A DNA stretch of 1,550 nucleotides, taken from Escherichia coli (GTDB taxonomy: Bacteria; Pseudomonadota; Gammaproteobacteria; Enterobacterales; Enterobacteriaceae). A program made the translations under genes and the position numbers. Below are positions 1 to 1,550 of the stretch, one piece after another. Under the pieces are notes generated by a model. It did not search any database and was not told the origin of the DNA. It saw nothing but the letters and a program-made list of their open reading frames with translations. The stretch lies in assembly GCF_003334355.1 (NCBI RefSeq), contig NZ_QOWP01000086.1, one strand, 5' to 3'. Each line of letters starts with the position of its first letter. Within the stretch, counting starts at the first letter, position 1.

Positions 1-1550
1 GATGGCCACGGGATTGGTGCGCCGACTGGGTAGCTTTCTGGTGGAAGATTTTTCGAGGTATAAACTTCTGCCCAGTCTTCCTCAAAACCATAGCCATCTC
101 TTGAGGAACGGTAGAACAGACCTCCATTTCTGTAATGTGCCTTCATCTGCAAGGTCCGGCAACTTCCGACTCCGGTATAGAAGTTAACCAGAATATAGGT
201 GTCGCCAGAGCGGGTGACATTGTAAGCGCCTGATTCGGCATTCCAGGGAACACCACCATCCGCATCGGCATATGTATCCGTTGCCCTTCTGGCAAAAGCA
301 GCCACATGCGCGGCGGTTAAAGTGATATCAGTAGAACCATCAAATGGAACACCGGATATTTTTCTTGCAGTCTGAAGTTTTGTAGCAGTTGCAGCATTAC
401 CAGTGGTGTTCTGATTACCCGTAGTGTTTACACCTGGAAGGTTAATATTTGCAGAACCGTCGAAAACAACTCCACCGATAGATCTTGCCGTCTGCAATTT
501 CGTGGCTGTACTTGCATTACCATTCAATGAACCAGTTAATCCACCTGTAACAGACAACGGACCTGAAACTGTTCCTCCGGTTGTTGGCAGTGCTCCAATA
601 TCTGATGGTGTAGGTTTCTGATGTGAGCTATACATCGTATAAACAACACCATAGGTAACGCTGGAAGGCTTACTCGCTGAATATGTTGGCGAGGTATAAA
701 CAGAAACTGACGCATTTGCAGTACAATCCCAATGGATATTTACACTCGTCGCATAATTGCCAATCTCAACGTAAATATCATATGTATCGCCGGATGTGTT
801 GATCCAGGCGAAATTCGTTAATCCGACGGCTGTACGCTTCCACAAAGCCCCGGTAATTCCTTTGGGGTTTCCATTGCCTGCTCGTAGAACCAGTTCTGAA
901 ATGCCTGCCTGATGTGGGGAACCGACGTTGTAACCAGCGCCACCAATCAATGCGATGTAAACGATGGAACTCGCTTGTGGCATGGTAACCGTAGCCAGTT
1001 TGAACCACCCAGCCCCGCCAGAGAAAGACATCGTTACTGAATTTAAAGTACCAATATCTTTCGGCGTTAATGTTATATCCGCAGTCAGTGCTTTTCCGTT
1101 AACTTTTCGGTTAGATGGCACCCTGCTATTCGCATTGTCATTGGCTGCTTTAACTGCTTTTGGCGTTGCGGCCAGCGATTCACTGGTGCTATCAACAGCA
1201 CTGCTAAGTTTCACAACACCTTTAGTTGTAAGGCTTGCGTCTTCCATCGCAACTGCACCGGCAATCTCTTCAGCACGATCAGCAGCAGCTTCCGCACGGG
1301 TCGCAGCGGATTCAGCAGTAGTTTTGCTCTGAGATGCTGCCGTCGCACTGCCTGCCGCCTCTGTTGCTTTCGTGGATGCCGTCGTGGCGCTGCCCCGCGC
1401 TGCTGACGCCTGTCTGGTCGCCTCATCTTTTGAAGCAGACGCCGATGATGCCGATGACGCCGCCGAACTGGCTGACGATGCGGCTGCCGTTTTTGAGGAT
1501 TCTGCACGGGTTTCCGACGCTTTCGCGTTCGTTTCGGATGTCTTCGCTGC
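1..1550 (-). CDS. Phage/prophage side tail fibre protein (lambdoid Stf-like), internal fragment; both ends lie outside the window
   Basis: Minus-strand frame with codons at + 1550..1548 down to + 5..3 is open for all 516 codons. This frame is absent from the ORF track, consistent with no in-window stop. Translation begins AAKTSETNAKASETRAESSKTAAASSASSAASSASSASASKDEATRQASAARGSATTASTKATEAAGSATAASQSKTTAESAATRAEAAADRAEEIAGAVAMEDASLTTKGVVKLSSAVDSTSESLAATPKAVKAANDNANSRVPSNRKVNGKALTADITLTPKDIG and ends ...SKNLPPESYPVGAPIPWP. The Ala/Ser-rich rod, the SESLAATPKAVKAA motif, the KLQTAR..FDGS..I.L repeats and the GAPIPWP motif are all characteristic of enterobacterial side tail fibre proteins as I recall them. 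Family assignment is from memory, not a search. Confidence 0.9.
3..23 (-). other. GAPIPWP junction motif at the window edge
   Basis: The last seven complete codons of the in-window translation read G A P I P W P (minus-strand GGC GCA CCA ATC CCG TGG CCA). As I recall it, this is the first part of the GAPIPWPSD motif shared by lambda Stf-type and other tail fibre proteins; the expected following residues lie beyond + position 1. Confidence 0.7.
318..398 (-). repeat. Tail-fibre repeat unit 2 (protein-level repeat NAATATKLQTARKISGVPFDGSTDITL)
   Basis: Residues 385-411 of the translation; same TATKLQTAR-x-I-x-GV-x-FDGS-x-x-I-x-L pattern as unit 1, 40 residues downstream of it. Confidence 0.8.
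438..518 (-). repeat. Tail-fibre repeat unit 1 (protein-level repeat NASTATKLQTARSIGGVVFDGSANINL)
   Basis: Residues 345-371 of the translation; matches unit 2 at 20 of 27 positions. Confidence 0.8.
531..1031 (-). other. Unassigned central domain of the fibre (about 165 aa), possibly a beta-rich module
   Basis: Residues 174-340: MSFSGGAGWFKLATVTMPQASSIVYIALIGGAGYNVGSPHQAGISELVLRAGNGNPKGITGALWKRTAVGLTNFAWINTSGDTYDIYVEIGNYATSVNIHWDCTANASVSVYTSPTYSASKPSSVTYGVVYTMYSSHQKPTPSDIGALPTTGGTVSGPLSVTGGLTGS. Composition is rich in G, T, S, V, Y and W with alternating hydrophobic residues; I cannot assign a named motif from sequence alone. Confidence 0.4.
1143..1172 (-). other. Conserved tail-fibre motif LAATPKAVKAA
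   Basis: Residues 126-136 of the translation (SESLAATPKAVKAAND). As I recall it, the (S/T)ETLAATPKAVK motif recurs in lambdoid and related enterobacterial tail fibre proteins. Confidence 0.7.
1248..1550 (-). other. Ala/Ser/Thr-rich low-complexity segment of the fibre (putative N-proximal shaft region)
   Basis: Residues 1-101 of the in-window translation are dominated by A, S, T with scattered K/E/R (e.g. KTAAASSASSAASSASSASAS, TRAEAAADRAEEIAGA). The DNA here is visibly more GC-rich than the rest of the window, about 65% in one hand-counted 60-nt block versus about 38-45% in blocks further 5' on the + strand. Confidence 0.75.
1440..1457 (-). repeat. Short tandem 9-nt repeat (2 units) encoding SSA-SSA within the Ala/Ser-rich segment
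   Basis: Minus-strand codons TCA TCG GCA / TCA TCG GCG; + strand reads cgccgatgatgccgatga at 1440..1457. Confidence 0.6.

Follow-up and report, generated by a model that had tools for sequence, protein, structure and literature searches.

The window, a 1,550-nucleotide stretch of an Escherichia coli contig (NZ_QOWP01000086.1), encodes a 40-residue phage tail-fibre repeat twice, in copies that are old and diverged; the repeat is very common, and the feature is real but ordinary. The overall explanation that we favour, and that we hold to be probable, combines an ancient and widespread 40-residue repeat, a mosaic stf gene, a recombination joint in the second of the two units, passive recoding of their DNA, and a role of the repeat as a trimeric beta segment of the fibre shaft.

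The side tail fibre gene and its repeat units

A single open frame of 516 codons spans the window on its minus strand; the initial annotation had described the repeats without a statement of strand. This uninterrupted frame and a match of 99.7% identity in NZ_CP072976 place the whole window (1..1550, minus strand) in the interior of the side tail fibre gene (stf) of a lambdoid prophage. The matching gene is annotated as a prophage tail fibre and sits between a Lom pseudogene and tfa, while the window frame corresponds to approximately residues 357-872 of a 1075-residue protein in E. coli EC2341. Judged in the 99.7% identical locus, the gene order (minor tail protein L, C40 peptidase, tail assembly pseudogene, Lom pseudogene, stf, tfa) is that of stf in a lambdoid tail cluster, after J/lom and before tfa. 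The full-length homologue also has both ends of an Stf protein, each outside the window: residues 1-94 match PDB 9E7M (E 2e-51) and represent the Stf N-terminal domain, and residues 861-1075 match PDB 2XGF (gp37; E 5e-88) and represent a T4 gp37-like C-terminal tip. An Rfam scan of the window gave 0 matches, and an NCBIfam search of the full protein and of the two-unit segment found nothing. Two short ORFs in other frames, both overlapping the units, 424-621 (+) and 428-523 (-), were considered as genes and dismissed as unsupported; both lie inside the fibre reading frame.

Read in the direction of translation, the minus strand encodes a Pfam Phage_fiber_2 repeat (PF03406, E 1.1e-18; residues 106-146, 1113..1235), then a globular middle domain (SVTMSFSGGAGWFKLATV..., 546..1112, delimited by BLAST boundaries), the two repeat units, and a domain akin to the S fibre of phage Mu (21..305). 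The last of these, recognised through a match of PDB 8JU3 to residues 772-866 of the full-length protein (E 5.5e-20), directly follows unit 2 and starts the distal module, which runs on beyond the window into the T4 gp37-like tip. The tail of the Phage_fiber_2 repeat, RKVNGKALTADITL, resembles the C-terminal half of a unit, though the match of the unit HMM is weak (iE 0.06-0.17).

The core of unit 1, NASTATKLQTARSIGGVVFDGSANINL (27 codons, residues 345-371), occupies 438..518 and that of unit 2, NAATATKLQTARKISGVPFDGSTDITL (27 codons, residues 385-411), 318..398; both are on the minus strand and match the unit HMM with E-values of 4e-24 and 1e-22, respectively. The 13-codon linker PGVNTTGNQNTTG (399..437, minus strand), identified by its conserved columns, fills out the 40-residue period, the two units being offset by 40 codons. 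Unit 1 is of the internal type because the LPGV...GNQ.T.G linker comes next; unit 2 is of the terminal type, ending in ITLTAA, after which the distal module begins. The two-unit segment of this fibre reads VTGGLTGSLNGNAS...ITLTAAHV. The middle-domain type of the window gene is seen again after terminal-type units in the proteins P0081, P0082 and P0093. The two units had initially been placed at 318-518 with 20 of 27 residues shared, and both the coordinates and the count proved correct, as did every codon pair quoted in support (ACG/ACA, TTG/CTT, ACG/ACT, GAC/GAT and TTC/TTT).

Age, ancestry and recoding of the two units

While the two units are identical at 20 of 27 amino acids (74%), only 50 of 81 nucleotides (62%) agree, and different codons are used at 12 of the 20 identical residues. 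A codon-aware alignment, which had been proposed as a check, gave a Nei-Gojobori pS of 0.83 (saturated, so that dS is undefinable) and a pN of 0.23. It is practically out of the question that the likeness reflects chance or the composition of a Gly/Thr/Asn-rich fibre: the sequence is indeed compositionally biased, but the best 27-mer self-match of the protein, 20 identities at lag 40, compares with a mean of 9.7 and a maximum of 12 in 500 shuffles, and unit HMM E-values of about 1e-23 together with thousands of homologous units refute such a reading. Nor do the units look like a recent tandem DNA duplication, their nucleotide identity being lower than their protein identity, and Tandem Repeats Finder and a direct-repeat search of the window DNA left the unit repeat undetected. 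With a pN of 0.23 against saturation at synonymous sites, the comparison supports the view that units 1 and 2 are ancient paralogues whose protein sequence has been kept by purifying selection.

The similarity of the gene to its relatives, however, changes partner inside unit 2. A codon-by-codon comparison puts the switch at about ...KLQTA|RKISG, with phi458/Cyrano-like sequence upstream of the joint and StfR/PhiR30_1/9g/Ro157c2-like sequence from the joint onward. In minus-strand nucleotides, BLAST similarity extends over 1-1214 for phi458, 1-1189 for Cyrano (megablast) and 1150-1550 for StfR and PhiR30_1. Mapped from about ten related sequences and sampled BLAST end points (E. coli matches total 5,853), the interval holding the joint is minus-strand query nt 1150-1214, that is, 337..401 of the window. 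In nucleotide identity, unit 1 is 96% identical to the first unit of Cyrano, and the 3' two-thirds of unit 2 are closest to 9g, PhiR30_1 and K-12 StfR. A cassette of ~730 nt, which includes the middle domain and unit 1, is common to phi458, Cyrano and P1-like plasmids and absent in K-12 StfR. Its left boundary is the end of the Phage_fiber_2 repeat, and the similarity to StfR and PhiR30_1 ends at minus-strand nt 419. Such a pattern shows the window gene to be a mosaic lambdoid side tail fibre with the unit pair at a module boundary, where a phi458/Cyrano-type middle cassette meets a StfR/9g/P1-type distal receptor-binding module within unit 2.

A single old tandem duplication within the window gene, diverged in place under purifying selection and without exchange, would also leave a conserved protein with saturated synonymous sites, and the pairing of two units across this linker is indeed ancient and widespread. 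We nevertheless judge this scenario rather unlikely. Unit 1 is 100% identical in nucleotide sequence to the first unit of phi458, yet identity between the second unit of phi458 and unit 2 of the window is only 75%; the nearest nucleotide relatives of unit 2 (PhiR30_1 and 9g, 88%) sit in fibres with unrelated upstream sequence; and the partner switch inside unit 2 contradicts it directly. As the similarity switches within the unit, part of the divergence between the units comes from different ancestries joined by recombination. The initial claim of an old duplication under purifying selection therefore stands as to ancient paralogy, but not as to one duplication in place. Judging from these sequence comparisons, we read the unit pair as ancient paralogy reshuffled by module exchange and not as in-place divergence of a simple duplication.

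Being common to many otherwise unrelated fibres, the motif may offer in-frame, structurally neutral exchange points, at which homologous or relaxed homologous recombination would swap distal modules or alter the number of units. Such exchange probably needs locally similar alleles. Recombination of lambda stf with the fibre genes of the Rac and Qin prophages has been shown experimentally, in a study that credits invertases with ancient stf exchange, citing Sandmeier 1994 (PMC3945230). This attribution speaks for module exchange at the unit by Pin/Cin/Gin-type invertases of stf loci instead of homologous recombination in motif DNA, as do recombinase genes of the neighbourhood: the EC2341 locus has a frameshifted one beyond tfa, and K-12 Rac and phi458 have pinR or Pin genes on the downstream side. 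Still, we grant this route only a slim chance: the joint lies in a stretch of about 11 codons that is near-identical in both parental types, which is the signature of homologous exchange. The Hin/Gin-type crossover is a 26-bp site with a AAACCnnGGTTT core. A scan for that core found none in the window or the compared loci, but the pattern also missed sites in the P1-like locus, which makes this negative a weak one.

The low nucleotide identity of the units had been expected to limit deletion by homologous recombination between them. As to substrate, this holds: the longest exact run common to both 27-codon cores is 6 nt, or 9 nt with flanks, which removes the substrate for homologous deletion, but there is no sign of selection for this. 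That synonymous recoding is an adaptation against deletion by homologous recombination or replication slippage is accordingly very improbable, even though, besides these short runs, nucleotide identity is 59-74% for each of the 24 unit pairs that lie within one gene in the 12 fibres compared first. The same codon is used at 8 of the 20 residues shared by units 1 and 2, against 7.7 +/- 2.0 expected from independent draws from the gene's own usage. Diverged unit pairs have a same-codon fraction of 0.386 within genes and 0.393 between genes, with 0.34-0.35 expected. Moreover, adjacent units agree at 80-81 of 81 nt in three other fibres, one of them P1-like and from E. coli, the other two metagenomic. 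We conclude that the low DNA identity of units 1 and 2 is a passive outcome of age and separate ancestry and not an adaptation; for this protein-conserved, DNA-recoded repeat, an adaptive explanation is unneeded. A search for extra synonymous conservation of the motif found none beyond expectation (0.39 vs 0.34-0.35), and the motif is therefore no signal for recombination at the DNA level.

Distribution and probable structure of the repeat

The consensus of the repeat is GNAATATKLqTARtIgGVsFDGSanInL, followed by the linker PGVNxxGNQxTx. Both units of the window have all 13 invariant or near-invariant positions (G3, N4, A5, A8, T9, L11, T13, I17, G19, F22, D23, G24 and I28), and the linker residues L38, P39, G40, V41, G45, Q47, T49 and G51 are invariant across 58 two-unit segments. 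Successive units are most commonly 40 aa apart (246 gaps in 150 proteins), and the lag of 40 and the linker found here conform to this period and to the pattern LPGV-x-x-x-G-x-Q-x-T-x-G. Profile A2, a profile of the 40-residue repeat that was built in this analysis and describes an uncurated family, matched 18,197 cluster representatives (clustered at 50% identity) with a threshold of E<=1e-3 and 6,161 with one of E<=1e-10; single proteins contained as many as 17 matched stretches. A tblastn search returned 450 phage records, covering Escherichia, Acinetobacter, Pseudomonas, Aeromonas, Yersinia and Synechococcus. The repeat ranges from coliphages to cyanophages, and the unit-linker-unit layout itself is also seen in phage fibres of Escherichia, Acinetobacter and Synechococcus.

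The number of tandem units (0, 1, 2, 3 or 4) varies freely among related fibres. Lambda Stf, unlike the Stf of the window, has no copy; K-12 StfR, T6 gp37, the P2-like H protein and PhiR30_1 have one each, phi458 and 9g two, the P1-like S protein four and Cyrano five, while P0085 has the upstream cassette of the window gene and then 4 tandem units. The initial suggestion to count units in homologous fibres was followed, and homologues do repeat the motif; across the fibres of many unrelated phages it is present 0 to 17 times. A homologue search with the 87-aa segment gave almost exclusively short partial proteins, unfit for units-per-fibre counts. Seen against this range, units 1 and 2 are an array of minimal length, built of a 40-residue fibre repeat that is ancient and very widespread.

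The two units had no Pfam match even at E<=10, the sole match in the protein being that to PF03406 at residues 106-146, and no Pfam family matched the 58 two-unit segments at E<=0.001. PF21446 (Gp34_trimer), seen in a relative, was rejected as the unit, for it covers a neighbouring domain instead. A literature search on motif strings found no relevant paper. In sequence and profile searches of the PDB, the unit matched only the tail of the Dec protein and the PhiM1 gp47 fibre (8VBX), and these searches found no solved structure with the unit; the paper on PhiM1 gp47 is silent on the fibre part that matches it.

The Dec match bears on structure. The unit profile matches residues 98-133 of phage L Dec (E 6.5e-4), where residues 99-134 form a trimeric spike that is unfolded in monomers, is required for the trimer and for capsid binding, and has antiparallel beta structure as indicated by CD (PMC11398494). 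Like the unit, this C-terminal spike (PDB 6E3C chain, residues ~98-134) has the motif NAeTAdKLsTARtI...sFDGSAnvtI, and it acts as a trimerisation element needed for stable capsid binding (PMC11398494; PMC6449081). Unlike the units of the window fibre, it occurs once, has an insertion of 7 residues, and ends a capsid decoration protein at the C-terminus instead of lying in a fibre shaft; the atomic structure of the spike is unsolved. An AF2 monomer model of the two-unit segment (mean pLDDT 78, pTM 0.39) has one beta-hairpin per unit at R-x-I/V-x-F, the 10-residue blocks of the hairpins averaging pLDDT 87-93; a Foldseek search of the PDB with this model returned nothing meaningful. By analogy with Dec, the unit is likely a trimerising beta-structure segment of the shaft. 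Its folding would depend on the trimer and yield a small segment of beta structure, to which each of the three chains would contribute a hairpin around ARxIxGVxFDG and one further strand, and arrays of units would set the length of the shaft.

Known fibre motifs and significance

Three studies, Haggard-Ljungquist 1992, Sandmeier 1992 and Sandmeier 1994, are said to have described conserved blocks common to the fibres of P1 (S), P2 (H), Mu, lambda (Stf) and T-even phages (gp37), and fibres reportedly evolve through gain and rearrangement of sequence motifs. The unit is present in this same circle of P1-like S, P2-like H, T6 gp37 and lambdoid Stf proteins, and, like the classic mosaic fibres, the window gene has module boundaries at conserved motifs. 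Tetart et al. 1998 reportedly found that His-box motifs of T-even gp37/gp38 are recombination points for adhesin swapping. The two cases are alike in concept, both being short conserved coding motifs of fibre genes at which receptor-binding modules are, or in the case of the unit would be, swapped by recombination; the His boxes are a different motif in another fibre part. Phage_fiber_2 (PF03406; the T4 gp34/gp12 alpha-beta repeat, PDB 4UXE/5NXF, PMC5537660) is also a short trimeric fibre repeat, and its copy in the window protein likewise marks a mosaic boundary. It differs from the unit in having a G-beta strand ... S/T-P-helix motif; the units do not belong to this family, and a PDB profile search with the unit gave no match to gp34 chains. 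The T4 gp34 repeat (PMC5537660), considered as the unit, proved to be a Phage_fiber_2-type motif.

For this window, the import is small: it adds one to the prophage tail fibres that are mosaic and carry a conserved repeat, and this pattern has been recognised since the early 1990s. The 40-residue unit may, as a tentative suggestion that we regard as possible but doubtful, be a formally undescribed major fibre-building repeat, a self-contained trimeric beta segment that would serve as a cross-family in-frame joint for module exchange and for tuning shaft length; if so, chimeric fibres could be engineered at splice points that it supplies ready-made. Despite being extremely abundant, the repeat has neither a Pfam or NCBIfam model nor a solved structure, and a curated profile together with a trimer structure would improve the annotation of fibres. 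The joint in unit 2 and the natural series of 0-4 tandem units behind the same cassette mark positions that tolerate module swaps and length changes, and such positions are useful in host-range engineering.

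Units 1 and 2 and the gene that carries them

The two 27-codon peptides lie at the positions given in the initial annotation and are encoded on the minus strand: window 438-518 (-) for unit 1 and 318-398 (-) for unit 2, with a 13-codon linker, PGVNTTGNQNTTG (-), between them. They are identical at 20 of 27 residues and 50 of 81 nucleotides. Different codons encode 12 of the 20 conserved residues, with every codon pair quoted in that annotation among them, and a codon-aware comparison (Nei-Gojobori counts) gave pS = 0.83 and pN = 0.23. No exact nucleotide run common to both exceeds 6 nt in the cores, or 9 nt once the flanks are counted, and the repeat went undetected at the DNA level by DNA repeat tools run on the window. 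At lag 40, the protein self-match was 20/27, whereas none of 500 shuffles gave more than 12. The unit pair is a real feature, statistically solid and correctly described.

A single unbroken frame of 516 codons spans the reverse complement of the window; it is missing from the minus-strand ORF list because it runs off both window ends. By megablast, the window aligns at 99.7% identity within a gene of 3,228 nt in E. coli EC2341; dozens of further E. coli genomes match at ≥99%, and at least 80% of the window is present in 397 genomes. In EC2341, the gene order is minor tail protein L, C40 peptidase, tail-assembly and Lom pseudogenes, the fibre gene and a tail fibre assembly gene; therefore, the window gene is stf, the side tail fibre gene of a lambdoid prophage. 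Three parts of its 1075-aa product were recognised by homology to solved structures: the Stf N-terminal domain (9E7M, E 2e-51), a Mu S fibre-related domain at aa 772-866 (8JU3) and the T4 gp37 tip at aa 861-1075 (2XGF, E 5e-88).

By annotation, the EC2341 prophage is defective, its terminase, tail assembly and lom genes being truncated or frameshifted pseudogenes (969-4868 of L001, the near-identical stf locus in NZ_CP072976), while stf and tfa are intact. Directly downstream of stf-tfa (L001 8775-10794) lie a frameshifted pin-like recombinase gene and, by annotation, a TIR-domain anti-phage reverse transcriptase gene, so that the decayed prophage ends in a defence gene. In the window ORF, aa 1-105 (window 1236-1550 (-)) form a long low-complexity Ala/Ser/Thr/Glu-rich stretch (AAKTSETNAKASE...) in which TRF reports imperfect short periods of 21 and 9 nt; it is also here, at minus-strand nt 242-260 (reverse-complement numbering), that many partial E. 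coli matches stop.

Mosaic structure and the joint inside unit 2

Compared codon by codon, the window gene is nearly identical to the fibres of phi458 and Cyrano up to a point ~11 codons into unit 2, unit 1 and the linker included, and unrelated to them beyond it; for 9g, PhiR30_1 and Ro157c2YLVW the reverse holds, with no relatedness upstream and almost complete identity from about ARKISG. BLAST boundaries agree with this partner switch: in minus-strand nt, phi458 matches 1-1214 and Cyrano 1-1189 (megablast), K-12 StfR and PhiR30_1 match only 1-419 and 1150-1550, and sampled E. coli matches begin or end at 1087, 1150, 1189 and 1211. The gene thus carries a ~730-nt cassette consisting of the globular middle domain and unit 1, which begins on the left at the Phage_fiber_2 motif and ends on the right within unit 2; since StfR/PhiR30_1 similarity stops at nt 419 (window ~1132 (-)) and is found again from nt 1150, where unit 2 starts, conserved fibre motifs bound the cassette on both sides.

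Unit 1 shares 100% nucleotide identity with the first phi458 unit, while unit 2 shares 75% with the second and 88% with units of fibres whose upstream parts are unrelated. Such differing nearest relatives indicate that the present pair was assembled, or at least half-replaced, by recombination. In this respect, the initial interpretation of an old duplication under purifying selection was correct only in part. The same motif also joins a further mosaic partner, an E. coli fibre fragment (P0035): its single unit, preceded by a Gp34_trimer (PF21446) domain, has the exact amino-acid sequence of unit 2, and the fragment carries the same distal module.

The joint falls where both parental types are nearly identical, which fits homologous or relaxed homologous recombination; modules would have been exchanged at this stretch. 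Such recombination has been demonstrated between lambda stf and the Rac/Qin fibre genes (PMC3945230). Alternatively, exchange might have been driven by invertases adjoining stf loci; no crossover-like site was found, but the pattern scan used is a weak test.

Copy number and recoding

Among homologous fibres, no unit is present in lambda Stf, a single unit in K-12 StfR, PhiR30_1, T6 gp37 and a P2-like H protein, and a pair in phi458, 9g and the P1-like fibre Ro157c2YLVW; four units were counted in another P1-like S protein and five in Cyrano. In Cyrano, three of the five form a tandem array immediately behind upstream sequence shared with the window; in the fibre protein P0085, this shared sequence is followed by four tandem units, plus three further on.

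The low nucleotide identity of units 1 and 2 leaves homologous recombination without a substrate within the gene. That part of the initial reading stands, but it is no evidence of selection for recoding: the missing substrate is a consequence of divergence. Three findings speak against adaptive recoding. The units have 8 codons in common versus 7.7 +/- 2.0 from independent draws on the gene's codon usage, that is, the random expectation. The same-codon fraction was 0.386 in 41 diverged within-gene pairs versus 0.393 in 536 diverged between-gene pairs (expected 0.34-0.35), and the motif halves do not differ in it. Moreover, neighbouring units are identical at 80/81 or 81/81 nt in an E. coli P1-like contig (L015) and two metagenomic contigs (L016, L017), so recent unit duplication or gene conversion evidently occurs and is tolerated. 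In L017, 40-residue and 37-residue unit variants alternate.

The 40-residue repeat and its likely function

Searched against 1.84 billion cluster representatives, a profile (A2) built from 23 real instances of the unit matched 18,197 proteins with a cut-off of E<=1e-3 and 6,161 with one of E<=1e-10; a single protein had up to 17 matching stretches. In the best 150 proteins, the commonest gap between successive units was exactly 40 residues (246 gaps), and the linker columns L-P-G-V...G.Q.T.G were invariant in 58 two-unit segments; therefore, the true repeat length is 40 residues. Internal units terminate in INLPGVNxxGNQxTxG and the last unit of an array in ITLT or ISLS, a pattern which the window pair fits, unit 1 being of the internal and unit 2 of the terminal type. 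By tblastn, the motif occurs in 450 phage records, including P1 S, P2-like H, T-even gp37, T4-like phages of Acinetobacter and Aeromonas, Pseudomonas PAK_P-like phages and cyanophages. The only Pfam match in the window protein was a Phage_fiber_2 repeat outside the units; none of the 58 segments matched any Pfam family, and NCBIfam gave no match.

A long variant, often the final unit of an array, has a 7-residue insertion after TAR-T-I/L, e.g., TARTLAISGDATGSASFDGSANATI (fibre proteins P0080 and P0094; PDB 6E3C, 8VBX); both the PhiM1 gp47 fibre and the Dec spike have this form. In the window ORF, SNRKVNGKALTADITLTPKDIG (aa 127-146; window 1113-1172 (-)) resembles a degenerate C-terminal half of a unit, with a weak unit HMM match (iE 0.06-0.17), and is also the tail of the Phage_fiber_2 match; in other fibres, TARTINGVSFDGSKNIELTPRSIG stands before the same globular domain (SxTMSFSGGxGWFKLATV) as in this ORF.

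Sequence, profile and structure searches found the unit in no solved structure. By analogy, the best lead to its function is Dec, the phage L decoration protein, in which the profile match (E 6.5e-4) covers residues 98-133 and includes a 7-residue insertion. Dec residues 99-134 form a trimeric spike that is unfolded in the monomer, and their deletion abolishes stable capsid binding; the spike has antiparallel beta structure by CD and, by AlphaFold2, three strands per chain around a hydrophobic core (PMC11398494). An earlier model, based on remote similarity to T4 gp34, proposed a triple beta-helix (PMC6449081). In our AF2 monomer model of the two-unit segment (mean pLDDT 78), each unit has a single beta-hairpin at R-x-I / V-x-F, and the blocks that hold the hairpins average pLDDT 87-93. 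We infer that every unit forms a trimer-dependent beta segment in the fibre shaft, the length of which would be set by arrays of units. Identity with the gp34/gp12 alpha-beta repeat of Granell et al. was rejected, since that solved repeat corresponds to the Phage_fiber_2 motif and differs from the 40-residue unit (PMC5537660).

The sole mildly new point is that so abundant a 40-residue repeat appears to have neither a curated family nor a solved structure. The unit pair itself is ordinary, conserved repeats and mosaicism in tail fibres being a known phenomenon.
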